Positions 5,770 to 30,908 of a DNA stretch of 32,000 nucleotides are shown piece after piece. Source of the DNA: Nanopusillaceae archaeon (GTDB lineage: Archaea > Nanobdellota > Nanobdellia > Nanobdellales > Nanobdellaceae); the NCBI GenBank assembly GCA_049974095.1, contig JBMFJD010000010.1, forward strand, positions 1 through 32,000, read 5' to 3'. The notes beneath the pieces are model-generated. The model was not told the DNA's origin. It searched no databases and was given only the letters and a program-made list of their open reading frames with translations. The position numbers and the translations under genes were made by a program. Numbering within the stretch: the stretch's first letter is position 1; every line of letters starts with the position of its first letter.

Positions 5770-5842
5770 AGCCCCGTCGTCTAGTGGTCTAGGATGCAGG
5801 GTTTTGGTCCCTGTGACCGGGGTTCGAATCCCCGCGGGGCTA
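5770..5842 (+). tRNA. tRNA-Gln (anticodon UUG), no encoded CCA
   Basis: Manual cloverleaf: acceptor AGCCCCG/CGGGGCU, D arm GUCU-AGUGGUCU-AGGA, anticodon stem CAGGG/CCCUG with loop UUUUGGU (UUG), variable UGAC, T arm CGGGG-UUCGAAU-CCCCG, discriminator A. It is a GC-rich island in AT-rich DNA. Confidence 0.9.
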
Positions 5843-5874
5843 GTTTTATAAATAATCAAAATTTATATTTTGAT

Positions 5875-6495: not shown

Positions 6496-7658
6496 ACTAT
6501 AAGGAAAAGATAATATTAATAGCAAATAACTTATTTGGAAGTTTCTTAAATAGTTTATATTTTATTTATCCATCATATTTTAATTTTCCTTCATCAATAT
6601 ATTTTTCTTTAGTTGCAATATCTTATATTTCTTCCCTAATTAGTTCTGTATTTTTTGGAAATTTGAAAATAAATGAAAAAAATTATTTAACTATTTCAAT
6701 GATTGGGGTAATTGGTCCTTTTTTATCAATATTTTTCCTATTAATTCCAAATCCAATTTTATTTATTCTTTCATATTTCTTATTTAATTTTACATATTAT
6801 TCAACATACTTTTCCTTTTTATTATATTATAAAGATGTTCAATTGAATTTTTACTTTAATATTTATTGGACTTTTGGATCAATAATTCTCCAATTTTCTT
6901 CATTAATTTTATCAATTTTTTATAATCTATATTTAGTTGCAATATTATTTTTAATTTCAATTATTATTATTCTTTCAAGGAATATTTATCTATTTTTATT
7001 TACAGAAAAATATGAAATAAATTTACTAGAAAAGATAGATAAATTATTTTCTATAGCAGAAGGTAATATTGAAAAATTTGGATCTTTACATCCATTTTAT
7101 GAAGGATTAATATTTCCAATAAATATAAAGAAAATAAAGATAGGATTTTTAGAATTATATAATTTATTTGTTTTAATAGGTTTTTCATTGATTTGGTCTT
7201 CATTAGTATATTCAGTTAATTTATTCTCTTTATCATTTATTTATCCATCCTTATTATTTATTAATGGTATTTATTCATCAATTTTATATAGAATATATAA
7301 AAGAAGTATTAGTTTCAAGAATATAAAAATTGGAATAATATCTAGGTTATTAATGGGAATTGTTTTATTTATTATAATGATTTTGTTATTATCAAATAAA
7401 ACAATAAGTGCTATAATATTAACATTATTATTTATTTTAGCAGCATTTTCATGGACAATGTTTCAATATTTCTTTGATAATTATATAATAAATTATTATC
7501 CACAAAAGTTTGGAAATATATATTTCTTTAGAAATATAGGAGGAGCAATTGGTTCTTTATTATTATATATTATTTCATTACAATATGGATTAATTATTTC
7601 ATTTTTAATTTTAAGTATTTCAATTTTCTTCTTAAATTATACTTTAAAGGTTAAATAG
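6492..7658 (+). CDS. polytopic membrane protein (possibly a transporter; family not assignable by eye)
   Basis: 388 aa, almost entirely hydrophobic segments (about 10 or more TM). ATGA overlap with the upstream membrane-protein gene. Confidence 0.55.
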   Translation: MNYKEKIILIANNLFGSFLNSLYFIYPSYFNFPSSIYFSLVAISYISSLISSVFFGNLKINEKNYLTISMIGVIGPFLSIFFLLIPNPILFILSYFLFNFTYYSTYFSFLLYYKDVQLNFYFNIYWTFGSIILQFSSLILSIFYNLYLVAILFLISIIIILSRNIYLFLFTEKYEINLLEKIDKLFSIAEGNIEKFGSLHPFYEGLIFPINIKKIKIGFLELYNLFVLIGFSLIWSSLVYSVNLFSLSFIYPSLLFINGIYSSILYRIYKRSISFKNIKIGIISRLLMGIVLFIIMILLLSNKTISAIILTLLFILAAFSWTMFQYFFDNYIINYYPQKFGNIYFFRNIGGAIGSLLLYIISLQYGLIISFLILSISIFFLNYTLKVK

Positions 7659-9143: not shown

Positions 9144-11555
9144 ATGAAAGTATTTGTTATAGATTTTGATCATGATAAAGAAAAAGTATATATTTATGGA
9201 AGAGATGAAAATGGAAAAAAGGTAAGAATTGAATATGATCAACCATATTATGTATATTTAATATTAAAAGATGAAAAATATTTAAATGAAATAGAAAATA
9301 AATTAAAAGAAGAAAAATATGTAAAGAAATATGAAATTGAAAAAAAGAATTTTATTGGAAAAGAATATACTGTAATTAAAGTATATTTAAACCAGGATGA
9401 TTATGATAAAATAAAACAATTTGCAGATAAATTAAAAGAAGAAGGTAAATTAGTTGGAAAAAAAGAAGGAGATATACTAATTATTAAAAAATTCCAGATA
9501 GATAATAATATATATCCATTAGATTGGTATGATTTAGATTTAGAATTAATAAAAAAAGGAGATATTGACTATTATAAATTTAAAAAAAATAATGGAAAAG
9601 TTGATGGAAAATATAATTTAAAAGTTGTTGCAATAGATATTGAAACTGTATCTGAACAAGCAATTCCTTCTCCAGATAAAGTACCAATTTATTTAGTTTC
9701 AATATATGATGGAAAAAATTATTATTCAATATATTGGAGTGGAAATGCAGAAATTGGGATAAAAGTAAATAATGAATTAGAATTATTAAAAAAGTTTAAT
9801 GATATAATAAAAGAAATAGATCCAGATGTAATTGTAGGATATAATTCAAATAATTTTGATTTTTATTTCTTATATGAAAGAGCAAAAAAATTAGGATTTA
9901 ATTTTAATTTTGGATGGGATGGAAAAGGAATTATATATACAAAGAAAAGAGAAGAAGATAAAAAATATAAAATTACTGGAATACAACATGTAGATTTATA
10001 TGATATTGTATCAATATTATTTGCTCCTCAATTAAATTCAGAAACTTATTCATTAGATGAAGTTGCAAAAGAAATATTGGGAGAAGGAAAAATGGATATG
10101 GATATTAATAAAATGACAGATATAATTTATAATACAAAAGATTTTAATTATTTAATAAAATATAATCAAAAAGATGTTGATTTAACTTTTAGATTATATA
10201 AATATTTTGAAAATATTTTAATTGAAATTTCAAGATTGGTTGGAATAACATTATATGAATTATCTGGAAGTACATATGGAATATTAGTAGAAAATTATTT
10301 AATTAAAAAGGCAAGGGAATTTAATGAAATAATACCAAATAGACCAAAACCTGAAGAAGTTGAAGAAAGGAGAAAAATAACATATGCTGGAGCAATTGTA
10401 TTAGAACCAAAACCTGGATTATATAAAAATATTGCAGTATATGATTTTAGGTCTCTATATCCATCAATAATTATTAGATATAATATTTCTCCAGATACAT
10501 TAAAATGTGAACATGAAGAATGTAAAAAGGATAAAATAATTGCTGAAACAAGTTTAGGAAAAATTGAAGTATGGTTTTGTAAAAAGAAAAAAGGATTTAT
10601 TTCTACAATATTAGAAAAAATATTTGAAGAAAGAGCTGAAATAAAGAAAAAAATGAAAAATATGGATAAAAATAGTGAAGAATATAAAATACTAGATAGT
10701 AGGCAAATTGCATTAAAATATATAATTAATTCTACATATGGATATTTAGGATTTCCAAATTCTAGATGGTATTGTTTGGAATGTGCATCGTCAGTTACTG
10801 CTTTAGGAAGGAAACATATAACAGAAGTAAAAGAATTTATTGAAAAGAAAGGATATAAAGTATTATATGGAGATACAGATTCAATTTTTGTAATTGTAAA
10901 TAATAAAGAAGATGCATTGAAATTATTAGAAGAAATAAATTCTATTTTACCAAAACCATTAGAAATGGAATTTGAAGATTATTATATATCTGGAATCTTT
11001 GTTGAAAAAAGATCTGGAGAAGGAGGTGCTAGAAAGAAATATGCGTTATTATCTGAAGATGAAAGTATAAAATTGAGAGGATTTGAAGTTGTAAGAAGAG
11101 ATTGGTCAGATATTGCTGGAGAAGTACAGGAAAATGTAATAAGATTAGCATTAGAAGGAAAAATAAATGAAATAAACCAATATCTTTCTGATGTAATAAA
11201 TAAAATAAAGAATCATGTATATCCAAAAGAAAAATTTATTTTAAGGGAACAATTAAGGAAAGAATTATCTGAATATGAAGTAACAGCTCCTCATGTAATT
11301 GCTGCAAAGAAATATAAAGAAAGAGGATATAATGTTGGAAAAGGATTTATTGTAGAATATATTATTGTAAGAGGAGGAGAAAAGATATCTGATAAAGTAA
11401 GATTAGTGGATGAAGTAAAAGATAATGAATATGATCCAGATTATTATATAAATAAACAAATAATACCTGCAGTAGAATCTATATTAAGGGCATTAAATAT
11501 ACATATAGAAAATATTGGAAAGGTACAAAAAAATATTTTATCATTCTTTAAATAA
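9144..11555 (+). CDS. polB: family B DNA polymerase, contiguous and intein-free
   Basis: Exo I VVAIDIET, Exo II YNSNNFDFYFL, Exo III YNQKDVDLTF. Pol motif A DFRSLYPSII, motif B KYIINSTYGYLG, motif C YGDTDS. 803 aa. Confidence 0.95.
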   Translation: MKVFVIDFDHDKEKVYIYGRDENGKKVRIEYDQPYYVYLILKDEKYLNEIENKLKEEKYVKKYEIEKKNFIGKEYTVIKVYLNQDDYDKIKQFADKLKEEGKLVGKKEGDILIIKKFQIDNNIYPLDWYDLDLELIKKGDIDYYKFKKNNGKVDGKYNLKVVAIDIETVSEQAIPSPDKVPIYLVSIYDGKNYYSIYWSGNAEIGIKVNNELELLKKFNDIIKEIDPDVIVGYNSNNFDFYFLYERAKKLGFNFNFGWDGKGIIYTKKREEDKKYKITGIQHVDLYDIVSILFAPQLNSETYSLDEVAKEILGEGKMDMDINKMTDIIYNTKDFNYLIKYNQKDVDLTFRLYKYFENILIEISRLVGITLYELSGSTYGILVENYLIKKAREFNEIIPNRPKPEEVEERRKITYAGAIVLEPKPGLYKNIAVYDFRSLYPSIIIRYNISPDTLKCEHEECKKDKIIAETSLGKIEVWFCKKKKGFISTILEKIFEERAEIKKKMKNMDKNSEEYKILDSRQIALKYIINSTYGYLGFPNSRWYCLECASSVTALGRKHITEVKEFIEKKGYKVLYGDTDSIFVIVNNKEDALKLLEEINSILPKPLEMEFEDYYISGIFVEKRSGEGGARKKYALLSEDESIKLRGFEVVRRDWSDIAGEVQENVIRLALEGKINEINQYLSDVINKIKNHVYPKEKFILREQLRKELSEYEVTAPHVIAAKKYKERGYNVGKGFIVEYIIVRGGEKISDKVRLVDEVKDNEYDPDYYINKQIIPAVESILRALNIHIENIGKVQKNILSFFK

Positions 11556-11878
11556 TGGATGAGATAGAGGAATATGAAAAAATATTAGATGAGTTAGAGA
11601 AAAAGATAAAAAATTTAAAAGAAGAATTAGAAAAAAATAAAAGATTAAATTTAGAATTAAAAGATAAGTATTTTAAATTAAAAATGCTTTTGGAAGATAA
11701 AAAGAAAGATTATAAAGAAATATTAGAAGAATTAAAGTACTTACTTCTTAATATAGATCAAAAACTGAATGATATTGAGGATATTAAAAAAAGAGTTTAT
11801 AACCTAGAACTTAGGGTAGATTTGTTATCAAAAAATATAGAAGAGATAAAGAAAGATATGATAAAAGAAAAGATATAA
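11555..11878 (+). CDS. small coiled-coil protein, function unknown
   Basis: 107 aa of K/E/L heptad-like sequence. The start codon overlaps the polB stop (TAATG). Confidence 0.5.
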   Translation: MDEIEEYEKILDELEKKIKNLKEELEKNKRLNLELKDKYFKLKMLLEDKKKDYKEILEELKYLLLNIDQKLNDIEDIKKRVYNLELRVDLLSKNIEEIKKDMIKEKI

Positions 11879-11910: not shown

Positions 11911-13062
11911 ATGGATATAAAAGAAAATTTTAATATAATAGAGGAGTTCTATACCTATGTAAAAAAGTTTAATGATAAGCTAATAGAACTAAATAAGGCA
12001 TTAAATAAATATGTAGAAAAAACAGAATTTTATGATCAATTAGATGGATTAAGAGAAGAATTAGAAGAAGTTAAAAAATCATTAGATAATTATAAATCAT
12101 ATTTAAATGAAGATGTATTAGAAAAAATAAGATATATACAAGATATCAAATTAAAAGTAGATGTATTAGAAAATAATCAGAAAAATTTTGTTGATTATTC
12201 ATATTTAGTAGATATAAAATCTAAATTAAATAAATTGGAAGGAGAAATAAATGATTTATTAACAAAAGTATCAAATTCTGAAGAAAAAATTAAAGAATTC
12301 GAAGAAGAAAAAGAAAAAATATCACAAATAGATAATAAATTAGAAGAAATAAATAATAATTATGTAAATAAAGAAGAATTTGAAAAAATAAAACAAGAAA
12401 TAAATAAGGTTACTGAAGCTGTTTCAAAAACATTAGAAAAAATATCCTCAGATTTAATACAATATAATAAATTGTTAGAAGATGTATCAGAAATAAAAGA
12501 AAAGGAACTATTTCAAATAAACAATAAAATAGAAGAATTAGAAGAAAAATATAAGAAAATAGATAAAGATTTTGATAAAAAAATTGGAGAAATGAGTTAT
12601 TTATTAGAAATAAAAGAAGAAGATATAAAAAATATTAAAAATATAAAGATAGCAGAAGAATTGTATAATAAATATGTTAATTTTGAAAATAGATTAAATG
12701 GTATGTATACATTATTTGAAGATCTTCAAAATATTGTAAATGATATAAAAAATAAAACACAAGATATAGAAAAGGTAAAAGAATTTGAAAATAAAATGAA
12801 TGAATTAGAAAGTAAAATGGGAAATCTTAGAAATGAGCTAAATGATTTGAAATATGAAATATTGGATTCAAAAGATATTGTAGAAACAGTATTAGCAGAT
12901 TATGAAAAAATGGAAAATAGAATAAAAAGAATAGAAAATGTTTTACAATTAACGAACTTTGATTATATTGTTGGAGAAGTTGAAAAGATTAAAGAATTAG
13001 AGAATGATATAGAGAATATAAAAAGGGAATTATATGAAAGAAGAATAAGTACTAGATCTTAA
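11911..13062 (+). CDS. long coiled-coil protein, function unknown
   Basis: 383 aa, nearly continuous E/K/L/I/N heptad-like sequence with no enzymatic motif. Confidence 0.55.
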   Translation: MDIKENFNIIEEFYTYVKKFNDKLIELNKALNKYVEKTEFYDQLDGLREELEEVKKSLDNYKSYLNEDVLEKIRYIQDIKLKVDVLENNQKNFVDYSYLVDIKSKLNKLEGEINDLLTKVSNSEEKIKEFEEEKEKISQIDNKLEEINNNYVNKEEFEKIKQEINKVTEAVSKTLEKISSDLIQYNKLLEDVSEIKEKELFQINNKIEELEEKYKKIDKDFDKKIGEMSYLLEIKEEDIKNIKNIKIAEELYNKYVNFENRLNGMYTLFEDLQNIVNDIKNKTQDIEKVKEFENKMNELESKMGNLRNELNDLKYEILDSKDIVETVLADYEKMENRIKRIENVLQLTNFDYIVGEVEKIKELENDIENIKRELYERRISTRS

Positions 13063-13415
13063 TGAATATTCTTTAATTTTTCAATAATATTGATCATTTT
13101 ATCAATAATATTATATAATTTTAATATTTTTTCTTTTGGTATATCTTTTATATTTTCTTCATTTAATATATCTATAAAATCTAATAATTGATTTTGTTTT
13201 ATAATATATAATTCATCAAAGTATCCTTCTTCTTCTAATCTATATAACATAGAAATTAATTTTACAGCATCATTTGAATTACTCAAATCAACTTCTTTTT
13301 TTAATATAACATTTACTTTTCCCTTACTTTTTTCTCTAGCTTCTTTTATTTTTTTATCCAATTCTAATATTTTTCTTCTCTTGCTATATTCTGATGAAGG
13401 AATTATTAATGGCAT
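13059..13415 (-). CDS. hypothetical protein, 118 aa
   Basis: ORF with typical local composition. It converges with a 4-nt overlap on the coiled-coil gene and lies directly downstream of the C/D box sRNA on the same strand. Confidence 0.45.
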   Translation of the reverse strand: MPLIIPSSEYSKRRKILELDKKIKEAREKSKGKVNVILKKEVDLSNSNDAVKLISMLYRLEEEGYFDELYIIKQNQLLDFIDILNEENIKDIPKEKILKLYNIIDKMINIIEKLKNIH

Positions 13416-13528: not shown

Positions 13529-14509
13529 ATGTATGAAATAATTCCAATGCTAATTGTCGATTCTATTATTTTAGGAATATCTTCTTATCAGGATATAAAA
13601 TATAAATCTGTTGATGATATCATTATTTATTCTTTATTTATTTTTAATATATTTTACTTTCTTTTTTTAATTTATTTAGGATATTATCCTCAAAATATTT
13701 TATTTTCTTATTTTATTCTTCTACTTTTTATAATTTTATATTCTCTAAGATTATTAGCAATTGGGGATCTATATGTATTTTTCTCTATTTTCTTATTATT
13801 ATCATATTTTTCTCTAAATAGTCTATTTTTATTCTTCTTTTATTTATTTCTTTTTGGATTTATATTTCATAATCTTGAAGGGGCAAAAATATTTTATAAG
13901 AATAATAATAAATATTTCTATTTATCTATTTTAGATATAATAATTATTTTGCTTTCTATTTACTTTATTTATAATTTCTTTTTCTCCTATTCAATTCTTT
14001 ATCTATTTATTTCTTTAATATTTTTATATATTTCATATTTTATCTTTAGAATATTTGAAAAAGAATTAAGGGAAAAATTAACATTTAGGAGAAAAGCAGA
14101 AGAGCTTGTTGAGGGGGATTGGATTGAAGATAATATTGAGTTAGAAAAAATAGAAGAAGAAGATATGAATTTATTATTAAAATATTTTGATGTAGAAAGA
14201 AAAGAAAAATATATTTTAAGATTTAAGAAGGAAAAAATATATAATAAAATTTTATTAATAATTATCTCTATTTTACCAATTATTTTTTATATAATCTCTC
14301 TTAAGTTCTTTATATTTTCAATTATAATAATACTATTATCTTTTCATATATTTCAAAATAAAATATTCAAAGGAAGGAAAGGTTTATCAAAAGAAGAAAT
14401 TGAAGTTTTAAAGAAGGTATCTAAATATAATAAAATAGAATTTAATGTATATGAAGGAGCTCCATTTGTTCCACCAATATTCTTTGCCTTAATATTATTA
14501 ATAATATGA
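13529..14509 (+). CDS. type IV prepilin/prearchaellin peptidase-like (A24 family, PibD/FlaK-type) with extended C-terminal region
   Basis: Polytopic membrane protein with Asp22 in SSYQDIKYKSVDD and Asp80 in LLAIGDLYVF. This is the same two-Asp spacing and G-x-G-D-like context as archaeal PibD/FlaK catalytic aspartates. A K/E-rich soluble insert and further TM segments follow. Confidence 0.65.
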   Translation: MYEIIPMLIVDSIILGISSYQDIKYKSVDDIIIYSLFIFNIFYFLFLIYLGYYPQNILFSYFILLLFIILYSLRLLAIGDLYVFFSIFLLLSYFSLNSLFLFFFYLFLFGFIFHNLEGAKIFYKNNNKYFYLSILDIIIILLSIYFIYNFFFSYSILYLFISLIFLYISYFIFRIFEKELREKLTFRRKAEELVEGDWIEDNIELEKIEEEDMNLLLKYFDVERKEKYILRFKKEKIYNKILLIIISILPIIFYIISLKFFIFSIIIILLSFHIFQNKIFKGRKGLSKEEIEVLKKVSKYNKIEFNVYEGAPFVPPIFFALILLII

Positions 14510-15516
14510 AATATAATATAATAGACAAAAAAACAATCAAAATTAATGCTGAACTAGATGAAGATTTAATATATTTGTATAAAATAATAAATCCTGGAGA
14601 TATAATTGAAGGGGAAGATTATAGGGTAATAAAATTTGAAAATGAAAAAGAGAAAATAAAAGTAAAGATAAAAATAGAAGTAGAAGATATAAAATTTTCT
14701 CAATATGGAAATTCATTAAGAGTATCTGGAAAAATATTGGAAGCAGATAAGGAAGTTGTTGGACATTATCATACATTTGATATAAAAGTTGGAAGCGAAT
14801 TTAAATTATATAAAAAAGATGGGATAAAAAGTTATGAATTAAAAATATTGGAAAAATCTAAAAAAAGAAAAAATCAAATTTTTGTTGTTTCTTTAGATAA
14901 TAATGAAATTGCAGTTGGAATAATTAATAATGGGGTAAAAATATTAAAGGAAGAAGAAATAAATATAAGTAAAGGAGATCCTGAAGAAGAATCTAAAAGA
15001 AAAAAGATATATTCTGAAATATTAAATATAATAAATGAATATAAATTAAAATATTTATGTATTATTGGCCCGGCATTCTATCCTGAAGAATTTTATGAAT
15101 ATATAAAGGAAAAAGCAAATGTAGAAAAAATATTGACATTTAAAGTATCAAATGGTGGTGTAAATGGAATTTATGAATTTATTAGAAGAAAGGAATATTA
15201 TGATACATTAAAAAATATTGAAATATTTGAATTAAATAAATTAATGGATGAAATATTATATTTAATCCAAAAAAATTTAATTGCGTTTGGATTTGAAGAA
15301 GTATATAAAAATGCATTATATGGGAATATAGAATATGTATTAATTACTGAAGAATTTTTTAAAAAAATGAAAGAAGAAAATATTAATAAATTATTAGAAT
15401 TATTTGAGATATTAGATAAAATAAATTCAGAAATCTATTTTGTAAATGAAAATATACAGAATTATGAATTAATAAATAAATTTGGTATTATAGGAAAGTT
15501 AAGATATAAAATATAA
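14506..15516 (+). CDS. pelA: Pelota (Dom34 homologue), mRNA surveillance/ribosome rescue factor
   Basis: 336 aa. The N-terminus MKYNIIDKKTIKINAELDEDLIYLYKIINPGDIIEGEDYR matches the Pelota N-domain pattern. Length and three-domain layout are consistent. Confidence 0.8.
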   Translation: MKYNIIDKKTIKINAELDEDLIYLYKIINPGDIIEGEDYRVIKFENEKEKIKVKIKIEVEDIKFSQYGNSLRVSGKILEADKEVVGHYHTFDIKVGSEFKLYKKDGIKSYELKILEKSKKRKNQIFVVSLDNNEIAVGIINNGVKILKEEEINISKGDPEEESKRKKIYSEILNIINEYKLKYLCIIGPAFYPEEFYEYIKEKANVEKILTFKVSNGGVNGIYEFIRRKEYYDTLKNIEIFELNKLMDEILYLIQKNLIAFGFEEVYKNALYGNIEYVLITEEFFKKMKEENINKLLELFEILDKINSEIYFVNENIQNYELINKFGIIGKLRYKI

Positions 15517-15541: not shown

Positions 15542-16591
15542 ATGAAAAGAAGATATCAAACAATGGCAGTAGGTTTATTTTTTGTACTATTAGGTCTTGC
15601 TTTATTAATATATTGGATTCTATTACCAGTTCCTTCTAAACAACAGCTCCTTCAAGAAATACTAAATCAAACAAATATTTCAATGCAAACAAGTCAAATA
15701 ACTACACAGATATCTCAACAATATCAATATGAAAATATTGAATTATCGACTTCTTCTATTTATTATTATATTGCTAATAATTATACTATAGGAAATTATA
15801 TTCCATCATATATAATTTATTTAGGAAATTCAAAATTTCAATCTAATATATTTTATGGTAAGATAAGTAAGGAATACTATTTTTATTTTTCTAATAATTC
15901 ATTGGGAGTTAATTTAACAGCAATTTTTTCATGCAGTAATGGATATTTTGACATATACATTAATGGTCAAGAAATCTATTCTGGATGTCAAAACGGACAA
16001 TTTAGTATATTTATTCCTTCTTCATATTTAATATATGGAGAGAATGGATTAAAAATAGAATTTGTACCAGATAGTATAATATTTAATGGATTTGGAGAAA
16101 TAAATAATTTAGAAATAACCTATTTACAACAAAATTCTTTATCTTTCTCTTATTATTATGTTTCTGGAAATGCATATATGTACTATGATTTTTGTCCATA
16201 TTATCCTCAAGATGTGGAATTAATAGTAAATAATTTATCCATACCTCTTTCTTCATGTTCTGGTTTATTTTATTTAACACCATATTTGAATATTGGGGAA
16301 AATAATATTGAATTAATATCTTCATATCCAGTTAATATTAATCAATTATATTTACAATCTAATCAACATTTATTTTTTATATTATTTCCAAATAATATAG
16401 AAAATAATTTGCTAGAAGTTATAGTAAGTAAAGGAGAAGGAACTATGATATTAAATAATAACTGTGTTTATTATGTAAATTCTGAGCAATCTGTATATGC
16501 AATCAATATTTCTAATTGCTTATTACCTGAAAATATTTTAGAAATAAGGCCAACAGGATATTTATATATTTCATATTTACAAATATCATAA
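15542..16591 (+). CDS. exported/membrane-anchored surface protein 1 of 4, N/S/Y/I-rich, Cys-containing
   Basis: N-terminal basic segment plus hydrophobic helix (MKRRYQTMAVGLFFVLLGLALLIYWILL). The body is very poor in K/E and rich in N, S, Y, Q, with several N-x-S/T sequons (NQT, NIS, NYT, NLT, NLS) and paired Cys. Confidence 0.6.
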   Translation: MKRRYQTMAVGLFFVLLGLALLIYWILLPVPSKQQLLQEILNQTNISMQTSQITTQISQQYQYENIELSTSSIYYYIANNYTIGNYIPSYIIYLGNSKFQSNIFYGKISKEYYFYFSNNSLGVNLTAIFSCSNGYFDIYINGQEIYSGCQNGQFSIFIPSSYLIYGENGLKIEFVPDSIIFNGFGEINNLEITYLQQNSLSFSYYYVSGNAYMYYDFCPYYPQDVELIVNNLSIPLSSCSGLFYLTPYLNIGENNIELISSYPVNINQLYLQSNQHLFFILFPNNIENNLLEVIVSKGEGTMILNNNCVYYVNSEQSVYAINISNCLLPENILEIRPTGYLYISYLQIS

Positions 16592-16592
16592 A

Positions 16593-17819
16593 ATGAGAAA
16601 AAAGAGTGGTGCTGGTGCTGTCTTTCTTCTATTTATATTGGTAGCTATTGGTATTCTCTTTTACTTTTATGGGGGAAGAATTATACAAGCAGTTGAAGTA
16701 TATATGTACAATCCAGGAAGTTCTAGTATTATTCAAGCTGGAGAAAATTTATTCAATGGATTTTACGGATCTTTGCAAGCAGTTTATAATATTCTATCAA
16801 ATCCTGAGCAATATGCAGAAAAACAATTAATGCAAACAGAACCTGCAAATCAACAGGTTTATTCTTATACCATAAATTTACAACCATTACAGTCTCTACC
16901 AGGTTTAATAGAAAAAGATGGAAATACTACCCAAACAGAAGTAGAATATGAATTTGAATATTCTTTACCTGCAAATGAAATACAAAATAATCAAGTAGAA
17001 TTTATATGTAATAGTAGTTATCCTTCATTACTTAATGGATGTTTTATAGATTTTCCAACTACTTCTAATGTTCAACCATCTTCAACATCAATATCTAGTC
17101 CTTTTCAAGTTCAAACAGTAGTATGTCAAATTCCATCATTTCAAATAAATACGTCTAATTGTAATTCTATTTTATCATTAGGCTTTACTATAGATAATAA
17201 TATTAAAGCTATTATAAATGATGTTATGAGTAGTACTAAATATAATTTCTTGGCAGTAAGTGCTACAATTGCTGCATATGCGAATGCTAATAATGAAAAT
17301 ATTTATACATACCTAAAAATAAATCCATCTGGATACGATGTTGGAATCTATAATGGAGTTTATAATTTACCATATATAGAAATTGGAAGAGCAGGAAAAG
17401 AAAGTGGATATCCTGTTTTATTAGAAAATAATCAAACTGCATATGATGTAATATTTATTAGTTTAGATTCTATTAATGGGATAAAAAAGATTAATTCATG
17501 GACCCTTTCATTTATTTATGATCCGTCACAAATTAATTTAGAATATTTAAATGGAAATCAATGTACTAATTCTTATTCTTTTGGAAATAATCGAGAATAT
17601 GAAATATCATGCAATAATAATAATTGTAATATATATGTAAATTCAGATTTTTTGAAAATATTACAAAATAATGGACAATTGTTAATTTTAGCAATACCTT
17701 TATGTATGCAACCAGGTTCCAGTTTCCAAGGATATACAACAGTAACAATTATTTCAAATATTAGTTATAATTATTTGCTGTCATCTTCTGCTACTATAAA
17801 TTATTATACATCTTCATAG
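16593..17819 (+). CDS. exported/membrane-anchored surface protein 2 of 4
   Basis: MRKKSGAGAVFLLFILVAIGILFYFYGG is a pilin-like N-terminal hydrophobic helix. The body is Q/N/S/T/Y-rich and K/E-poor with multiple Cys. The start is 1 nt after the preceding stop. Confidence 0.6.
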   Translation: MRKKSGAGAVFLLFILVAIGILFYFYGGRIIQAVEVYMYNPGSSSIIQAGENLFNGFYGSLQAVYNILSNPEQYAEKQLMQTEPANQQVYSYTINLQPLQSLPGLIEKDGNTTQTEVEYEFEYSLPANEIQNNQVEFICNSSYPSLLNGCFIDFPTTSNVQPSSTSISSPFQVQTVVCQIPSFQINTSNCNSILSLGFTIDNNIKAIINDVMSSTKYNFLAVSATIAAYANANNENIYTYLKINPSGYDVGIYNGVYNLPYIEIGRAGKESGYPVLLENNQTAYDVIFISLDSINGIKKINSWTLSFIYDPSQINLEYLNGNQCTNSYSFGNNREYEISCNNNNCNIYVNSDFLKILQNNGQLLILAIPLCMQPGSSFQGYTTVTIISNISYNYLLSSSATINYYTSS

Positions 17820-17854
17820 AAATGTTTATATTTTATTAAATAGAAAAATTAAAT

Positions 17855-18838
17855 ATGAAGACAAATAAAGTATTATCTATATTACCAATTTTTCTTTTAG
17901 GAACAACCCTATTTTATTTTTCTTCATGTCCAACAGTAAATATTAATACTGGAAGCGGAGGAAGTTCTGGAAGTACAGTTCAATTCACACAACCATCGTG
18001 GGCAATAAATCAGGCAGGAAATGTACAAATAACTATACAATCTCCATCTATGTTATTCTATAATCCAAATTTAGGATTATCATATACATTACCAATGTCA
18101 TATACAAATTCTATATATACTGAATCTAATAATCAATTAACAGTAACATATCAAATAGCTACCTATGGAAATATATCTCCATCTTCTGGTTCATTTACTC
18201 CTCAAACTCCTATATATAATCCATCATCAAAGTCTATTACTGTAATTACATATCCTTTACAAGCATTACAACTTAAATTACCTTCTGGATTACAAGCAGT
18301 TCCATCTTCTCTCCTAATTGAGATACAATATAATATAAGTAATGTACAAACAAATATAGAAATACCATTAATATTAAAAAATACAAATTCTGGAATAACT
18401 CTTACAGAACCAATTTATTATTCTTCTTCTCCAGTTATTCCAACTTCTAATAGTATTCAGATAACAGAAGGTGGTGGATATGCAACATTTTCTCTTTCTC
18501 TAGAAGATGCTTTAGGATGTTTTAGTGCAATGAATCCTTCATTAGGAGAAATTCCAGAGATAAATATAGATAATACAGTACTTCAACTAAATGCTGGAGG
18601 ACAATTAATTAATGTACAAAATGGTCAAAACGGATTTGATTGTGCACCAACAGGAACAATACCTTTGCAATCAGCAGCAATAGTATGTCAAATAAATATG
18701 AATCAATTAGCATCTTCCTATCCATCTATACAGAGCGCTTTAAGTTCTAATGTTGGTGTTATAGGAGGAGTATTAATTAATATAACATATAACTGTGAAG
18801 AACAAACTTCCTTTAGTATACCATTAAATGAAACATAG
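17855..18838 (+). CDS. putative lipobox-type surface lipoprotein 3 of 4
   Basis: Signal peptide MKTNKVLSILPIFLLGTTLFYFSSC followed by a flexible tether TGSGGSSGS. The body is S/T/N/Q/P-rich and K/E-poor, with Cys pairs. Confidence 0.6.
   Translation: MKTNKVLSILPIFLLGTTLFYFSSCPTVNINTGSGGSSGSTVQFTQPSWAINQAGNVQITIQSPSMLFYNPNLGLSYTLPMSYTNSIYTESNNQLTVTYQIATYGNISPSSGSFTPQTPIYNPSSKSITVITYPLQALQLKLPSGLQAVPSSLLIEIQYNISNVQTNIEIPLILKNTNSGITLTEPIYYSSSPVIPTSNSIQITEGGGYATFSLSLEDALGCFSAMNPSLGEIPEINIDNTVLQLNAGGQLINVQNGQNGFDCAPTGTIPLQSAAIVCQINMNQLASSYPSIQSALSSNVGVIGGVLINITYNCEEQTSFSIPLNET
17880..17925 (+). repeat. 46-nt exact direct repeat, copy 1 (signal-peptide cassette)
   Basis: tattaccaatttttcttttaggaacaaccctattttatttttcttc is identical to 18850-18895. 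The flanks 17876-17929 and 18846-18899 differ at only about 3 positions. Confidence 0.9.
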
Positions 18839-19706
18839 GATTTTTTCTGTATTACCAATTTTTCTTTTAGGAACAACCCTATTTTATTTTTCTTCTTGTA
18901 TTTCTCTTAGTAATCAATCTTCTACTACGCAGTCTTCTTCTACATATTCTAAAGCTAGTTTTTATTTTGATGTTTATACAGGTCCGGGTTTTTCTCCCTA
19001 TGTTTATCCAAATGTACCATTTCAGGTTCCAATAATTATTAGTACTTCTAATCCAAATTTTCAATGGACTATATGTTTAGCAAGTTTACCAAATGGATTT
19101 GCAATAAGTGGAAATACATGTTATTCTTCATCAAATATTGCATATAATAATTATAATCAGACTCAAATATATTTACCATATAATGGAAATATAACATTAA
19201 CTGATCCTTCTCTTTTATCTTCTAATAACATAAATCTAAATATATATGAATGTTATCAATATGAAAGTTCTTATTATATACAAGGTTGTTTTGAAAATCA
19301 GCAATGTTCATATACTTTCCAATCTTTTACACAAAATGATCCTATACAAATAAATAATATAAATGCAATACGTACATCAAATGGATATTTATTAAATATT
19401 TATGTTAGTATAAATAGAGGATCATCAGTATTTGATATTACTACAAATAATATTATAAATAAATGTAATCCAAATAATATTAATTTATTGAATTATTCTT
19501 TATATTATAATCTAACTTTGTTTATTAATGGAAATTCATACTATTATAATGGTTATTTAACATTTCCTTCCAATTCGAATAATTATGAAATCTCTATACC
19601 AATTAATTATCAAGGAACAAATGAATATATTTTTGGTAATTTGGCATTTTACTATTATATATTTGAAGAAAATACAATTGCAACATTAAATGTACAAACT
19701 TCATAA
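18828..19706 (+). CDS. putative lipobox-type surface lipoprotein 4 of 4
   Basis: Signal peptide MKHRIFSVLPIFLLGTTLFYFSSC is nearly identical to that of the preceding gene. A Ser/Thr-rich tether (SLSNQSSTTQSSSTYS) follows, then an N/Y/S-rich body with multiple Cys. 11-nt overlap with the upstream gene. Confidence 0.6.
   Translation: MKHRIFSVLPIFLLGTTLFYFSSCISLSNQSSTTQSSSTYSKASFYFDVYTGPGFSPYVYPNVPFQVPIIISTSNPNFQWTICLASLPNGFAISGNTCYSSSNIAYNNYNQTQIYLPYNGNITLTDPSLLSSNNINLNIYECYQYESSYYIQGCFENQQCSYTFQSFTQNDPIQINNINAIRTSNGYLLNIYVSINRGSSVFDITTNNIINKCNPNNINLLNYSLYYNLTLFINGNSYYYNGYLTFPSNSNNYEISIPINYQGTNEYIFGNLAFYYYIFEENTIATLNVQTS
18850..18895 (+). repeat. 46-nt exact direct repeat, copy 2 (signal-peptide cassette)
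   Basis: Identical to 17880-17925, offset 970 bp. The rest of the two genes shows no obvious nucleotide identity. Confidence 0.9.
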
Positions 19707-19730: not shown

Positions 19731-20507
19731 ATGTATAAGAGAAAGGATTATCCAAAAGAAAATGATTATGTAATATGTACTGTAAAAGAAATATCAGATA
19801 TGGATGTAAAAGTAAGTTTAGATGAATTTGAGAATTTTAATGGAATAATCCCAATTGATGAATTATCTAATAGAAGGATAACAAATCCAAGAATAATTGT
19901 TAAGGAAGGTAAAAAAATAGTTTGTGTAGTATTAGATGTAGATATAAATAATAGATTAGCAACATTATCTTTGAGGAGAGTAGATAAAAATAAACAAAAG
20001 GCAAAGGTGCTAGAATATAAAAGAGAAATTGTTGCTTATAATGTATTAAAAATTATGGGTGAAAAAGAGAAAATTGATATGAAAGAAATAGAAGAAAAGA
20101 TTATATTTAAAATAGTACCTAAGGAAAAATTATATAATGTATTTTTGAATGCATATATAAATGGAAAAAAAGTATTAGAAGATTATGAAATAGATAAAAA
20201 ATTAATAGATAAATTACATAAATATATATTAGAATATTTGAATCCTCCAAAATATCAGTTTGCATACATTTTACAAGCATATAATATAGAAGGAGATGGA
20301 ATAAATAAGTTAAAGGAATTCTTAAAAGAAATAAAAGATATTGGGGTAAATATTACTTATTTAGGTTCTCCATCATATTTAATTAAATATATTACTATAG
20401 ATCCTTCAGATTTGCAAAAAAAGGAGAAGAAATTGATGGAAACAATTGAAGAAAGTGCTAAAAAATATAATATAATTTATGAAATAAATAAATATGAAAG
20501 AGATTAG
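19731..20507 (+). CDS. eif2a: translation initiation factor aIF2 alpha subunit
   Basis: N-terminal S1 domain (PKENDYVICTVKEISDMDVKVSLDEFENFNGIIPIDELS), then helical and alpha-beta C-terminal domains. 258 aa, a typical length. Confidence 0.9.
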   Translation: MYKRKDYPKENDYVICTVKEISDMDVKVSLDEFENFNGIIPIDELSNRRITNPRIIVKEGKKIVCVVLDVDINNRLATLSLRRVDKNKQKAKVLEYKREIVAYNVLKIMGEKEKIDMKEIEEKIIFKIVPKEKLYNVFLNAYINGKKVLEDYEIDKKLIDKLHKYILEYLNPPKYQFAYILQAYNIEGDGINKLKEFLKEIKDIGVNITYLGSPSYLIKYITIDPSDLQKKEKKLMETIEESAKKYNIIYEINKYERD

Positions 20508-20670
20508 AAAATGTCCAAATTGTAAAACATATACATTTAAAGAAATATGTCCAAAATGCGGGACAAAAACAGTTAGAGTTATCCCTCCAAAATTTTCTCC
20601 AGAAGATAAGTGGGGTGATTATAGAAGAAAAATGAAAAGGGAAATTTTATATAAAAAAGGATGGCTATAA
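20494..20670 (+). CDS. nop10: H/ACA RNP protein Nop10 (58 aa, below the ORF-track cutoff)
   Basis: Translation by hand: MKEIRKCPNCKTYTFKEICPKCGTKTVRVIPPKFSPEDKWGDYRRKMKREILYKKGWL. It has a CxxC...CxxC zinc ribbon followed by the conserved (R/K)FSPxDxxxxYR motif. It overlaps the aIF2-alpha 3' end by 14 nt. Confidence 0.85.
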   Translation: MKEIRKCPNCKTYTFKEICPKCGTKTVRVIPPKFSPEDKWGDYRRKMKREILYKKGWL

Positions 20671-22937: not shown

Positions 22938-24701
22938 ATGGAATTTGTTCCATTATATATTAAAAATTTATGCTTCAATTGTGGAGGAACCATATCATCT
23001 TATAGATTATCTAATGGTTTACCATGTAATGATGATTTAGATGATAATGATATAAAAGAATTATTAAATATAAAGGATGAAAATGAATTTATAGAAAAAT
23101 TATATGAAAAATTAAAACAAAAAGGAAAATTAAAGAACTTTGATGAAATATATAAATTATATAAAGAAACAAAAGAATTTAAAGAATTTTTTAATAAATT
23201 AATTAAAAATGATCCTTGGAGAATACAATTAATGTGGTTTAAAAGATTGTATAAAAATATAAGTTTCTCTATGATCACTCCAACAGGAATTGGAAAATCT
23301 ACATTTATTATAGTTTCTTCAATATATTTTGCTTATAAGTATAAAAAGAAGATAATAATTGTTTTGCCTACAAGGTTATTGGTAAAACAAGTATTGGATA
23401 CATTTAACAAATTTTTATCTGAATTACAAATTAATTTAGAAATAGCATATTATTATGGAAAAGAAAAGAAGGGACAAAAAGAAAAAATAAAAGAAGGAAA
23501 TTATAATATTTTGGTTATATCTAATCAATTTTTATCAAAAAATTTTGAATTATTAAAAGATAAAAAATTTGATATAGCGTTTATTGATGATGTAGATTCA
23601 TTTTTCAAAGGATCAAAGAATATAGAAAGAATATTTATTTTGTTAGGATATACTCAGGAAGAAATAGATATTGCTAAAAAGATAATTGATTTAAAATTAT
23701 CTGGAAAATTAAATTTTAATAGCGAATTGTATAAAAAATTTTTAGAAATTAAAAATAAAAAGGCAGGAATTATTATATTATCTTCTGCTACTGGAAGTTT
23801 AAGGGGTAAAAGAGTATTATTATATAGAGAATTGGCAAACTTTACTGCAGGAACTGGTACTTCTAAAATAAGAAATGTTATAGATGTATTTTATTATCCT
23901 AAAGATGATATAAAGAAAGAAGTATTAAAAATTGTAAATTTGCTAAAAGATGGGATATTAATTTTTGTTCCAAAAGATAAAGGTATAGAATTTGCAAAAG
24001 AATTATACGAATATTTAAAGAATAATAATGTAAATGCTGAATATGTATCAGCAGAAGTTAAAAATATCGATGAGATAATAAATAATTTTAAAGAAGGAAA
24101 GGTAAATGTATTAATTGGAATTTCAGATCCATATGGAATATTGGTTAGGGGTATAGATATACCAGAAAGGATTAAATATGCAATATTTGTTGGAATTCCT
24201 AAGATAAGGATTAATATCTCTAAATTAGAAAAAAATATAAATAATCTTTTAATATTAGCATCTTTAATAGCACCAGTATTACCAGAACTTGAAAAAATAG
24301 AATTATCAAGAAAAGTTGAAATAACTAGGAGAAATTTAAAAAGATTATCTTCAGAATCTTTAAAATTAATTAATGAATATTTATCTGGAAATAATGTAAA
24401 TCTAAAAGGATTTAACAAGAAAGTTGCAGATGATTTATTATTATTATATAATAGAGTAAATGAGTATTTAAAAAATAAAGAAATAATTGAAAAAATAAAG
24501 GAAAATCCTGAGGTGTCTACAGAAATAATAAATAATGATATTTATGTTAAAATTGCAGATCTAAAATCATATATTCAAGCATCTGGAAGAACTTCTAGAT
24601 TATATGCTGGAGGGATTACAAAAGGTCTTTCTATTATTTTAGTTGATGATGAAAAACTGTTAAAATCCTTAGATTTAAAGTTAAGATATTATCTGTTGTA
24701 G
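22938..24701 (+). CDS. rgy: reverse gyrase, N-terminal helicase-like half only (split gene)
   Basis: N-terminal zinc finger CFNCGGTISSYRLSNGLPC, WRIQLMWFKRL, Walker A ITPTGIGKST, DDVD box, SSATG, and YIQASGRTSRLYAGGITKGLSIILVDD. The ORF stops about 25 aa after this last motif, where the topoisomerase IA half normally begins. The next gene is tmcA. Confidence 0.85.
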   Translation: MEFVPLYIKNLCFNCGGTISSYRLSNGLPCNDDLDDNDIKELLNIKDENEFIEKLYEKLKQKGKLKNFDEIYKLYKETKEFKEFFNKLIKNDPWRIQLMWFKRLYKNISFSMITPTGIGKSTFIIVSSIYFAYKYKKKIIIVLPTRLLVKQVLDTFNKFLSELQINLEIAYYYGKEKKGQKEKIKEGNYNILVISNQFLSKNFELLKDKKFDIAFIDDVDSFFKGSKNIERIFILLGYTQEEIDIAKKIIDLKLSGKLNFNSELYKKFLEIKNKKAGIIILSSATGSLRGKRVLLYRELANFTAGTGTSKIRNVIDVFYYPKDDIKKEVLKIVNLLKDGILIFVPKDKGIEFAKELYEYLKNNNVNAEYVSAEVKNIDEIINNFKEGKVNVLIGISDPYGILVRGIDIPERIKYAIFVGIPKIRINISKLEKNINNLLILASLIAPVLPELEKIELSRKVEITRRNLKRLSSESLKLINEYLSGNNVNLKGFNKKVADDLLLLYNRVNEYLKNKEIIEKIKENPEVSTEIINNDIYVKIADLKSYIQASGRTSRLYAGGITKGLSIILVDDEKLLKSLDLKLRYYLL

Positions 24702-30293: not shown

Positions 30294-30316
30294 TTACGAG
30301 ATTGTTTATTTTTAAC

Positions 30317-30907: not shown

Positions 30908-30908
30908 A

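Follow-up and report, generated by a model that had tools for sequence, protein, structure and literature searches.

We describe a block of four genes, A to D, that very probably encodes an exported, membrane-tethered module of the nanoarchaeal cell envelope. Thermophilic Nanobdellota have passed the block on by vertical inheritance, and it occurs in the lineages of Nanobdella, Nanopusillus and YN1 and in their relatives. With moderate confidence, we favour a fuller explanation in which the tethered proteins of this inherited module would act as a glycan-binding scaffold.

Four tightly packed genes with hydrophobic N-termini

The genes lie on the + strand of the window, the 32,000-nucleotide stretch of DNA that we analysed, whose source organism is described as an acid-hot-spring nanoarchaeon. 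Gene A (15542-16591; ORF of 349 amino acids) encodes a predicted bitopic protein of the cell surface, whose N-terminal helix is of the pilin/archaellin type and whose ectodomains are predicted jelly rolls; gene B (16593-17819; 408 amino acids) encodes a bitopic protein with one transmembrane segment and an 8-Cys ectodomain. Genes C (17855-18838; 327 amino acids) and D (18828-19706; 292 amino acids) encode predicted lipoproteins, the former with two Ig-like β-sandwich domains and the latter with seven Cys. The spacing is 1 nt between A and B and 35 nt between B and C, and C and D overlap by 11 nt; the original prediction, made from the sequence alone, had these coordinates and distances exactly right. 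It had also correctly placed the block downstream of a prepilin-peptidase-like gene (13529-14509) and the Pelota gene (14506-15516), which lie directly upstream of A.

As anticipated, each of the four proteins starts with a basic segment and a single hydrophobic segment, with Kyte-Doolittle peaks at residues 10-28 (A), 7-25 (B), 6-24 (C) and 5-23 (D); the same analysis gave no further transmembrane segment in any of them. Searches of Pfam and NCBIfam with A-D returned no match at meaningful E-values. The four proteins belong to no curated family, in agreement with the original prediction, and we found no homology to solute-binding proteins or other ordinary characterised families. The accompanying claim that they lack any recognisable motif did not survive closer analysis: C and D have a lipobox Cys, and A has a degenerate archaellin/pilin-type N-terminus together with BcsB/GH2-type jelly-roll signatures.

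Conservation of the block in nanoarchaea

The source had been suggested to be a nanoarchaeon, and relatives anchored on Pelota are indeed Nanopusillus, Nanobsidianus, Nanobdella and strain YN1; the window derives from a member of the Nanobdellota akin to YN1, Nanopusillus and Nanobdella. The full A-B-C-D set occurs in Nanobdella aerobiophila and in three metagenomic lineages. The order peptidase-Pelota-A-B-C-D-aIF2α-Nop10-PAC2 is kept in N. aerobiophila MJ1 (A/B/C/D of 349/408/328/284 amino acids) and in locus L020; in L021, A-B-C-D-aIF2α lies at the end of a contig, and L017 shares the gene order, with an extra lipoprotein. Nine Nanopusillus/Nanobsidianus loci carry A, a B of 90-124 amino acids and, where the contig extends that far, C. 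YN1 has A and a 168-amino-acid B and lacks C and D, and D is also absent from Nanopusillus. The block is always positioned between the A24 prepilin-peptidase/Pelota pair and aIF2α, and a distant A homologue (about 22% identity) still adjoins Pelota and PAC2. The module is present in single copy, its synteny is strict, and lengths and Cys positions are kept down to 22-32% identity. That it adjoins translation genes may be due to a gene order that became frozen, not to co-function.

In MJ1, gene C is MJ1_0467, and MJ1_0466, MJ1_0468 and MJ1_0469 are presumably the other block orthologues. Transcripts in co-culture cover 735 of the 736 CDSs of MJ1 (10.1101/2023.10.27.564410); the text of that study does not mention the block orthologues, and we did not find their tags in the literature searched.

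Identity between window and MJ1 proteins was 68% for aIF2α, 57% for Pelota, 51% for A and about 46% for B, C and D, with conservation of A close to that of the A24 peptidase and somewhat below that of Pelota. At unsaturated dS (0.28-0.48), dN/dS was 0.20 for A, 0.27-0.39 for B, 0.22 for C and 0.25 for D, versus 0.06-0.11 for eight neighbours, indicating purifying selection that is relaxed 2-4 times. In the comparison for rapid evolution that had been proposed as a check, dN/dS is raised relative to the neighbours and there are lineage-specific losses; the genes remain under purifying selection (ω at most 0.39) in strict synteny. For A at least, such evolution speaks against an adhesin that changes fast and is specific to one host. 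Some lineages have lost C, D and the B ectodomain, so these parts may have accessory roles, possibly related to the host.

Low charge is confined to acidophilic lineages

Residue counts bore out the expected contrast in composition with the cytoplasmic neighbours. K+E amounts to 7.2% in A, 7.4% in B, 4.9% in C and 3.4% in D, versus 18-32% in most flanking cytoplasmic ORFs (28.0% in Pelota, 25.6% in aIF2α); K+E+R+D to 5.8-10.5% versus 27-52%; and N+S+T+Q+Y to 42-52% versus about 20-26%. The only other ORFs in the window that are equally charge-poor encode multi-pass membrane proteins and two archaellins (30302-31517). The N-x-S/T sequons that had been pointed out are present, 21 in all, but are not enriched beyond what an N/S/T-rich composition gives: with 2000 shuffles per protein, observed/expected numbers were 7/5.3 (A), 5/7.6 (B), 4/6.6 (C) and 5/8.4 (D).

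We also disagree with the reading of this composition as that of a thermophile's extracellular glycoproteins. Charged residues make up 22-24% of the L017 and L020 orthologues and 7-11% of the ectodomains in the acidophile group, while cytoplasmic control proteins are 33-37% charged in all eight genomes. N. aerobiophila MJ1 is grown at pH 2.5, and YN1 was sampled at pH 2.7 (PMC11420986 for YN1). Since low charge is confined to acidophilic lineages, it points to acid adaptation of the ectodomains rather than a family trait, and the K/E-poor, N/S/T/Q/Y-rich make-up of A-D is best seen as an adaptation of acid-exposed ectodomains to about pH 2.5-3.

Gene A: a pilin-type helix and predicted jelly rolls

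A search of 1.84 billion representatives placed A in a family of 14 strong and 5 weak clusters. Its first 43 residues (15542-15670, + strand) comprise MKRR-Y-QT, a hydrophobic helix that is the single transmembrane segment, and an amphipathic helix after a kink at Pro29; the AF2 model has helices at residues 2-27 and 30-43. Throughout the family alignment, position -2 is K/R and +1 is Gln, with -1 variable. Distant members read KGQA, RAQA or RGQD at the class III site, MJ1 A carries the canonical KGQT, and the archaellins of the window begin MKGQ, like the KGQ of distant A members. By its sequence, the N-terminal helix of A appears to descend from an archaellin/pilin-type (class III) signal. 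The signal is degenerate in the window protein, with Tyr at -1 (L, S, N, T or H in other members), so A probably stays uncleaved.

Residues 85-349 (15794-16588, + strand) form a β-sandwich/jelly-roll region with a three-fold repeat, 'x-I-N-G ... C ... YL-x-x-G-x-N-x-I', and six Cys arranged as 131/149, 218/239 and 308/326. Secondary structure here is all-β; the AF2 pLDDT is about 80 from residue 85 to 198 and drops after that, and the whole model is of low confidence (pLDDT 60.5, pTM 0.37). Its Foldseek matches are the sugar-binding jelly rolls of GH2/GH35 and the carbohydrate-binding domains of BcsB (probability 1.0, E-values of 5e-5 to 1e-3), at low TM-scores (at most about 0.24). A distant family member, P0032, passes the Pfam BcsB threshold (31.4 bits, cut-off 21); it is the sole member behind this Pfam link and is itself tied to the A profile at E 9e-4. 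Four family members weakly match a galactose-binding-like model. In the ectodomain, the residues that are invariant or almost so are Cys, Asn, Pro, Gly, Leu and aromatics, including Asn331 (invariant) and N141, N168, N230, N254 and N305 (almost invariant), and the family alignment has no conserved acidic or His residue there. Given this lack of conserved catalytic-type residues, we take A to be a non-enzymatic protein with a predicted role in glycan binding or scaffolding.

Gene B: a single-pass protein with eight Cys

B is a single-pass protein with a putative four-disulfide ectodomain. Its transmembrane segment is at residues 7-25, and a conserved juxtamembrane helix carries an NP-x-x-Y motif. 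A word-indexed search with B returned only B itself; orthologues are found in MJ1 (about 45-46% identity), L020, L021 and L017 (hhalign probability 93%). The short forms of Nanopusillus/Nanobsidianus and YN1 have lost the 8-Cys ectodomain.

Genes C and D: predicted lipoproteins

The signal peptide of C ends in F-S-S-C25, with Cys25 invariant, and that of D in F-S-S-C24. D orthologues (L014, MJ1, L020, L021 and L017) share the invariant C24, C83, C142 and C213. The window lipobox is off the bacterial consensus at -3, and the MJ1 lipoboxes, F-A-V-C and F-S-I-C, have Val or Ile at -1. Genes at C's position in L017, L020 and L021 have LAGC, FAGC or AAGC lipoboxes, and canonical lipoboxes also occur at D's position in these loci; homology of C or D to the canonical-lipobox proteins of L017 was not detected, apart from a weak D match (E 0.001). 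The Cys count is odd in all 13 lipobox proteins (five in the window's C, seven in its D) and even in A (six) and long B (eight) at every locus. From these sequence features, we infer that C and D are lipoproteins with a lipid anchor predicted at the Cys that ends the signal peptide. Lipoproteins and the lipidation enzyme AliA have been reported in DPANN (PMC12462473).

The AF2 model of C (pLDDT 75.6, pTM 0.71) consists of tandem Ig-like sandwiches, with generic Ig-like Foldseek matches only. The signal-peptide coding stretches of C (17860-17929, + strand) and D (18830-18899, + strand) are copies of a direct repeat, 87% identical over 70 nt with an identical core of 47 nt.

A prepilin peptidase-like neighbour

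The gene at 13529-14509 (+ strand), which overlaps Pelota by 4 nt, is A24 (FlaK/PibD-type) prepilin peptidase-like, as judged from weak Pfam matches (Peptidase_A24, E 0.0016; Arc_PepC, E 0.0099; both below cut-offs), Asp conservation and synteny. Asp23 of 'SYQD' is kept in all five full-length homologues, the sixth, from L017, being short at the N-terminus, and Asp80 of 'AIGD' is invariant in all six. The gene holds the same position in YN1, Nanopusillus, Nanobdella, L017 and L020 and is a possible partner of the module.

Discussion

Among the closest known systems, A resembles BcsB, the periplasmic cellulose synthase subunit (PF03170), and the galactose-binding-like domains of GH2/GH35, since its ectodomain is predicted to be built from the same jelly-roll modules; P0032 matches the BcsB model over CBD1, and A is likewise predicted to be membrane-tethered, non-catalytic and extracytoplasmic. 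However, A has about 350 residues rather than about 700 or more, an N-terminal pilin-type anchor rather than a C-terminal transmembrane anchor, no flavodoxin-like domains, no adjacent BcsA-type synthase and, in the window, no Pfam match of its own. ArlF and ArlG, the S-layer-binding archaellum stator proteins, are monotopic, with an uncleaved archaellin-like helix and a β-sandwich ectodomain in the pseudo-periplasm, as predicted for A, but A is twice as large with another sandwich type, and the NCBIfam ArlG model did not match A-D. The genome of YN1 reportedly encodes FlaF itself (PMC11420986), so that an analogue would not be needed. Like the lipobox lipoproteins of archaea (haloarchaea and DPANN; AliA/AliB pathway), C and D start with a basic n-region and a hydrophobic region, and their signal closes with an invariant Cys; orthologous positions in relatives have L-A-G-C, unlike the motifs of the window and MJ1. 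The putative cell-surface proteins of N. aerobiophila (Kato et al., 10.1101/2023.10.27.564410) come from the same organism group and resemble A-D in kind, with N-glycosylation sequons, Ig-like/lectin-like folds and an N-terminal transmembrane segment.

We propose that the four proteins are exported, disulfide-bonded and tethered at the outer face of the cytoplasmic membrane. A, anchored by its uncleaved pilin-type helix, would display glycan-binding jelly rolls; A and the B stem would be the indispensable core, and the B ectodomain, C and D accessory parts. Jointly, perhaps as a complex, A-D would be a scaffold that binds glycans between membrane and S-layer and keeps the glycosylated envelope or contact zone in place or in order.

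The same proteins could instead serve host recognition and adhesion: with A as a lectin, they would bind the host archaeon's glycosylated S-layer and set host specificity. All cultured relatives are obligate ectosymbionts, the predicted fold of A is of lectin type, and host-surface glycans of N. acidilobi differ from the symbiont's own (PMC4935971). Raised dN/dS and lineage-specific loss fit host-interaction proteins, and gene content differs with the host: MJ1 (Metallosphaera) has A-D, Nanopusillus (Acidilobus) lacks D and the B ectodomain, and YN1 (Sulfurisphaera) lacks C, D and the B ectodomain. In Nanoarchaeota populations, 'hypothetical external' proteins have the top non-synonymous SNP densities (PMC6142677). 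Nevertheless, A is single copy, syntenic and conserved across lineages with unrelated hosts, its family reaches distant DPANN lineages, purifying selection acts on each of the four genes, whose lengths and Cys positions are conserved, and the paralogue expansion or hypervariable regions that usually mark host-specificity factors are absent. We consider this role unlikely, though it is the strongest competitor.

A role in type IV filaments is less probable still. A, perhaps with B, would be processed by the A24 peptidase into minor or tip pilins of a pilus or archaellum that display carbohydrate-binding domains, C and D being accessory envelope factors. Wherever a Nanobdellales locus covers the position, the A24 gene, complete with its two catalytic Asp, is found two genes upstream, and the kinked 43-residue helix of the A model is of the expected type, with a canonical site in MJ1 and distant members. 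Known prepilin peptidases, however, require Gly or Ala at -1, as mutagenesis of FlaK and PibD established, which the window A and the members with L, S, N, T or H there do not provide; none of the window's A-D fits a FlaFind-type pattern, and pilin N-terminal HMMs gave no match. There are precedents for modular pilins with lectin modules and for binding proteins with class III signals (PMC9934059, 10.64898/2026.04.22.720090), and S. sanguinis PilB and PilC and the sugar-binding proteins of the Sulfolobales bindosome carry, as predicted for A, a lectin or binding module on a pilin-type helix, with a prepilin peptidase gene near by. The A-D locus differs in having no filament assembly genes (no assembly ATPase or platform gene was found within the 32-kb window), and in that A's partners C and D have lipobox rather than class III signals and are predicted lipoproteins, not pilins. 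Least credible is solute capture from the host, with the lipoproteins and A binding substrates as the binding proteins of a bindosome or ABC transporter do. Archaea commonly have binding proteins anchored as lipoproteins or by class III signals (10.64898/2026.04.22.720090), and nanoarchaea rely on imported metabolites (PMC4935971), but no substrate-binding family in Pfam or NCBIfam was matched and no ABC permease or ATPase gene was found near any locus. The predicted all-β Ig-like fold of C, in place of a two-lobe α/β fold, and this gene context largely refute a substrate-binding role.

With the tethered glycan-binding scaffold as the preferred reading, A-D are testable candidates for the means by which these very small symbionts make their envelope or contact site.

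A conserved block of four surface-protein genes

The four-gene block at 15542-19706 is real and was rightly flagged by the original prediction. Its plus-strand ORFs lie in the close array described there and encode A (15542-16591; 349 aa, 6 Cys), B (16593-17819; 408 aa, 8 Cys), C (17855-18838; 327 aa, 5 Cys) and D (18828-19706; 292 aa, 7 Cys), spaced by a 1-nt gap, a 35-nt gap and an 11-nt overlap. Each product has a basic N-terminus with a single strongly hydrophobic segment close by. The unusual composition was also borne out: Lys and Glu make up 3.4-7.4% of A-D as against 18-32% of most cytoplasmic neighbours, all charged residues (K+E+R+D) 5.8-10.5% as against 27-52% in neighbouring ORFs, and N+S+T+Q+Y 42-52% as against about 20-26%. 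The N-x-S/T sequons are likewise real, 21 being present in A-D, but comparison with shuffled sequences showed that this count is not above the expectation from composition. As proposed, the proteins belong to no curated family, since no credible or meaningful Pfam or NCBIfam match was found for any of them. Rfam and tRNA scans detected no element within the block. With hhalign, A, B, C and D were mutually unrelated except for the signal peptides of C and D, and we therefore rejected the idea that they are four paralogous minor pilins. The GC content of the block (23-30%) is slightly higher than that of the window as a whole (about 22%); the amino-acid make-up of the proteins accounts for this, and synteny of the block extends across the order, so that we do not take it as evidence of horizontal acquisition.

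The local gene order, on one strand, is a FlaK/PibD-type prepilin peptidase-like gene of the A24 family (13529-14509), Pelota, A, B, C, D, aIF2-alpha, Nop10 and PAC2; up to Nop10, no gap between neighbours exceeds 35 nt, and the A24 peptidase and Pelota overlap by 4 nt. The A24 peptidase retains two catalytic-type Asp residues, in 'SYQD' and 'AIGD', which correspond to FlaK D18 and D79. The Nop10 gene (20494-20670) begins within aIF2-alpha, whose last 14 nt it shares; encoding 58 aa, it is too short for the 60-aa minimum of the ORF list. Three further genes separate DNA polymerase B from the A24 peptidase, encoding a 107-aa protein with 40% K+E (11555-11878), a coiled-coil protein of 383 aa that weakly matches FlaC_arch (11911-13062) and, on the opposite strand, a 118-aa protein (13059-13415). 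This three-gene arrangement recurs in the Nanobdellota strain YN1, and at least the last two genes are also found in N. acidilobi and MJ1.

The window belongs to a JGI metagenome contig. Pelota-anchored loci were recovered from Nanopusillus, Nanobsidianus and Nanopusillaceae genomes (66-68% identity), and the cultivated systems YN1 and Nanobdella aerobiophila MJ1 were also reached through protein look-ups. Between Pelota and aIF2-alpha, MJ1 has A-B-C-D (349, 408, 328 and 284 aa; 51%, 45-46%, 46-47% and 45-46% identical to the window proteins, respectively), as do the related loci L020 and L021, and L017 has A-B together with three lipoproteins. Nine Nanopusillus/Nanobsidianus loci have A, a 90-124-aa B consisting of a transmembrane segment and a short helical tail, C where the contig extends that far, and no D. 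YN1, which is closest to the window judged by Pelota and aIF2-alpha, has only A and a 168-aa B. The block has thus been inherited as a module, in versions that form a natural deletion series: A-B-C-D, A-b-C and A-b, where b is the short form of B.

A profile search of 1.84 billion representative proteins identified 14 strong full-length clusters and five weak clusters (389-423 aa) of the protein A family. One weak member lies beside Pelota and PAC2, and another upstream of PAC2 and Nop10; because these distant members keep such neighbours, the linkage of A with Pelota and PAC2 is old. At L015 9176-10366 and on the contig of the distant family member P0032 (distant DPANN), the A homologue and PAC2 flank a gene for an MJ0043_C-domain protein (Pfam PF27218); on the P0032 contig, a 325-aa gene separates the A homologue from the MJ0043_C protein.

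Protein A is predicted to combine a pilin-type anchor with carbohydrate-binding-type folds

The N-terminus of the A family is of the archaellin/pilin type, with K/R at -2 and Gln at +1 retained throughout. The window protein starts MKRR-Y|QT, so that the -1 residue is Tyr rather than the Gly or Ala of the class III [K/R]-[G/A] leader. Elsewhere this residue is L, S, N, T or H, and outside the distant members, which have KGQA, RAQA or RGQD, it is Gly only in MJ1. A FlaFind-type pattern is accordingly matched by MJ1 A (KGQT), by the distant members P0028, P0029, P0031 and P0032, and by the second archaellin-like protein of the window; B, C and D do not fit it. Pfam and NCBIfam models of pilin and archaellin N-termini matched none of A-D and none of P0028-P0032. 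A does have the helix of a class III protein (about 20 or more residues, continuing amphipathic), with a hydropathy peak at 10-28 and AlphaFold2 helices at 2-27 and 30-43. There is a remote possibility that the A24 peptidase, divergent and syntenic, tolerates other residues at -1 and would still cleave A ahead of the conserved Gln.

In the AlphaFold2 model of A, built with seven sequences (pLDDT 60.5 overall, about 80 at residues 85-198), this N-terminal helix is followed by a disordered Ser/Thr/Gln-rich linker and then by all-beta domains. Foldseek against the PDB matched the model to the jelly rolls with which GH2/GH35 enzymes bind sugars and to the BcsB carbohydrate-binding domains (probability 1.0, E 5e-5 to 1e-3), with low TM-scores, as expected with a multi-domain query. 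P0032, alone among 20 family members, exceeds the Pfam BcsB (PF03170) threshold, over CBD1 (31.4 bits, where the cut-off is 21); the window protein has no Pfam BcsB match, and other members match galactose-binding-like and GH2_N models weakly. Profile searches of PDB sequences returned nothing significant, whether run with A, B, C or P0032 or with the alignment of 20 A-family members. The sequence of A contains a three-fold 'I-N-G ... C ... YL-x-x-G-x-N-x-I' motif. We consider it secure that the predicted architecture of A joins jelly rolls of the CBM type to an anchor of the pilin type. The invariant or near-invariant ectodomain positions in the family alignment are Cys, Asn, Pro, Gly, Leu and aromatics; no Asp, Glu or His is conserved there, which fits a binding or structural protein rather than an enzyme. 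The likeness to BcsB has limits: BcsB is arranged CBD-FD-CBD-FD with a C-terminal transmembrane anchor and adjoins the BcsA synthase, whereas A is anchored at its N-terminus, its ectodomain (about 265 aa) is all-beta, and there is no adjacent glycosyltransferase in any locus examined.

B is a predicted bitopic protein with a dispensable ectodomain

B has a single transmembrane segment, a conserved helix with an NP-x-x-Y motif and an eight-Cys ectodomain in which six Cys are invariant. A word-indexed search with B returned only B itself, despite the 45%-identical orthologue in MJ1; its apparent orphan status is therefore an artefact of search sensitivity. The long form shares homology with a 449-aa L017 protein (93% probability in hhalign), and on this ground we regard it as ancestral. 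The short B of YN1 (L011 7046-7552) carries a Tyr/Asn-rich N-terminal extension (…YLYYYYLYYYYYYL…) ahead of the transmembrane segment, and its start may be miscalled. In one Nanopusillus MAG, some 300 nt of non-coding DNA come after the 124-aa B (L009 12058-12432) and may be what is left of the ectodomain.

C and D are predicted lipoproteins

The Cys at the end of the signal sequence is invariant, at C25 in C and C24 in D. In both window proteins it is preceded by F-S-S, of which positions -2 and -1 fit the lipobox [L/V/I]-[A/S/T/V/I]-[G/A/S]-C, and position -3 is Phe. Proteins at the same gene positions in L017, L020 and L021 have canonical LAGC, FAGC or AAGC lipoboxes. Moreover, the number of Cys is odd in all 13 lipobox proteins; every A of these loci has six, and every long B eight. 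The lipidation enzyme AliA and lipoproteins have been reported in DPANN, AliA 'with some gaps' (PMC12462473). Based on the invariant Cys, the canonical lipoboxes of relatives, the odd Cys counts and this report, we read C and D as predicted lipoproteins whose lipobox would have drifted to F-S-S-C in acidophilic lineages. With hhalign, no homology was detectable between window C or D and the L017 lipoproteins; hence, across the deepest split the lipoproteins are putative orthologues only.

The AlphaFold2 model of C has two Ig-like sandwiches (pLDDT 75.6, pTM 0.71). Foldseek against the PDB and viral models returned generic Ig-like sandwiches only (Cnm, FimC, RbmA and integrin domains), and with such generic matches and low TM-scores no specific function can be derived for C. 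The 5' ends of C and D encoding the signal peptides (17860-17929 and 18830-18899) form a 70-nt direct repeat that is 87% identical, with a core of 47 nt that is perfectly identical, synonymous sites included; outside the repeat, C and D have no relation to each other. Within the window genome, the two copies resemble one another more closely than orthologues do between that genome and its closest relative (L014), which suggests gene conversion.

Charge loss is confined to ectodomains, and all four genes are under purifying selection

Charged residues make up 33-37% of Pelota and aIF2-alpha in all eight genomes compared. In the ectodomains of A-D they make up 7-11% in the window, L014, YN1, Nanopusillus, MJ1 and L021, and 22-24% in L020 and L017. 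This lineage-dependent, ectodomain-restricted loss is indirect evidence that A-D face outside. MJ1 is cultured at pH 2.5, and the source spring of YN1 is at pH 2.7 (PMC11420986). We infer from these two pH values that the composition reflects acid adaptation of the ectodomains.

Between the window and its closest relative (contigs L014 and L022; dS 0.28-0.48), dN/dS was 0.20 for A, 0.39 and 0.27 for the N- and C-terminal parts of B, 0.22 for C and 0.25 for D, as compared with 0.06-0.11 for Pelota, aIF2-alpha, PAC2, an MJ0538-like gene, L44e, GINS and the helicase. Thus, A-D are functional genes under purifying selection, with 2-4 times less constraint than their housekeeping neighbours. Across deeper splits, A keeps pace with the A24 peptidase, modestly behind Pelota, and B, C and D diverge faster.

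Other genes in the window

The 587-aa ORF at 22938-24701 has a reverse-gyrase zinc finger, helicase domains and no topoisomerase domain, and is syntenic in YN1, MJ1 and Nanopusillus; its product resembles the helicase portion of a reverse gyrase divided between two genes, as found in Nanoarchaeum equitans. The mechanically assigned start of a multi-pass membrane ORF (5794-6495) falls within tRNA-Gln (5769-5843), and translation probably begins further downstream; neither this ORF nor that at 6492-7658 (388 aa, many transmembrane segments) has a Pfam match. Two adjacent archaellin-like genes, just downstream of tRNA-Glu (30184-30258), are as charge-depleted as A-D. The one at 30302-30907 matches Pfam Arch_flagellin (E 1.7e-19), with ATG 30317 as the likely true start, giving MKGQG; the other, at 30909-31517, has a weak match only and starts MKGQA.

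Possible functions of the module

We consider it secure that A-D are an order-wide syntenic set of predicted exported, membrane-tethered, Cys-paired ectoproteins. In the model that we propose, A and the stem of B, present in every locus of the order examined that covers them, would be the core, the B ectodomain, C and D would be accessory parts, and the assembly would bind or organise glycans in the space that separates membrane and S-layer. The pilin-like start of A and the adjacent A24 peptidase, with both Asp residues, could instead mean that A, with the module, serves a type IV filament. That reading is weakened by the non-canonical -1 residue of A, by the lipobox signals of C and D, and by the failure to find assembly genes nearby, there being no ATPase or platform gene within the 32-kb window. 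The idea that A is an analogue of ArlF/G was downgraded since YN1 is reported to encode FlaF (PMC11420986); the ArlG NCBIfam model matched none of A-D, and ArlF and ArlG structures were absent among the top 50 Foldseek matches of A. A role as solute-binding proteins of an ABC transporter was rejected: there is no family match, C is all-beta and Ig-like, and no transporter genes lie nearby.

Host adhesion is possible, mainly via the dispensable parts of the module; A itself, single copy, syntenic and conserved across lineages with unrelated hosts, would make a poor determinant of host specificity. Cryo-electron tomography of Nanobdella and YN1 has revealed a 'cone' at the host contact, made up of repetitive densities that lie externally on the symbiont membrane in place of the S-layer, and the authors state that the proteins of the cone and attachment organelle are unknown (PMC11104419, PMC11420986). 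Because those papers name no organelle proteins, it is an attractive idea, albeit a long shot, that A and the conserved membrane-proximal part of B build or anchor this extracellular cone of the Nanobdellota attachment organelle, with C, D and the B ectodomain as lineage-specific accessories. The text of a survey of Nanobdella surface proteins does not discuss the A-D orthologues (10.1101/2023.10.27.564410), and we found no mention of the locus tags of the MJ1 orthologues in the literature searched.

A-D are best described as new, uncharacterised proteins of known archaeal surface-protein kinds, namely a pilin-type-anchored CBM protein (A), a bitopic Cys-rich protein (B) and two predicted lipoproteins (C and D), that form a conserved module. 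On a smaller scale, they also contribute predicted Nanobdellota lipoproteins with a lipobox that has apparently drifted in acidophilic lineages, an anchor of the archaellin/pilin type whose cleavage site is degenerate, and a clean within-family case of probable acid adaptation confined to ectodomains. K/R-poor surface proteins tend to escape standard trypsin proteomics, as did the predicted S-layer protein of N. acidilobi for this reason (PMC4935971). Cultured nanoarchaea attach to their hosts via an elaborate organelle and depend on a glycosylated envelope, and the proteins of neither structure have been identified so far. The module provides four concrete, conserved, single-copy envelope candidates with orthologues in the cultivated N. 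aerobiophila MJ1 and YN1, and the series from A-B-C-D through A-b-C to A-b suggests which parts are core. A-D are thus testable candidates for the envelope and contact biology of nanoarchaea.
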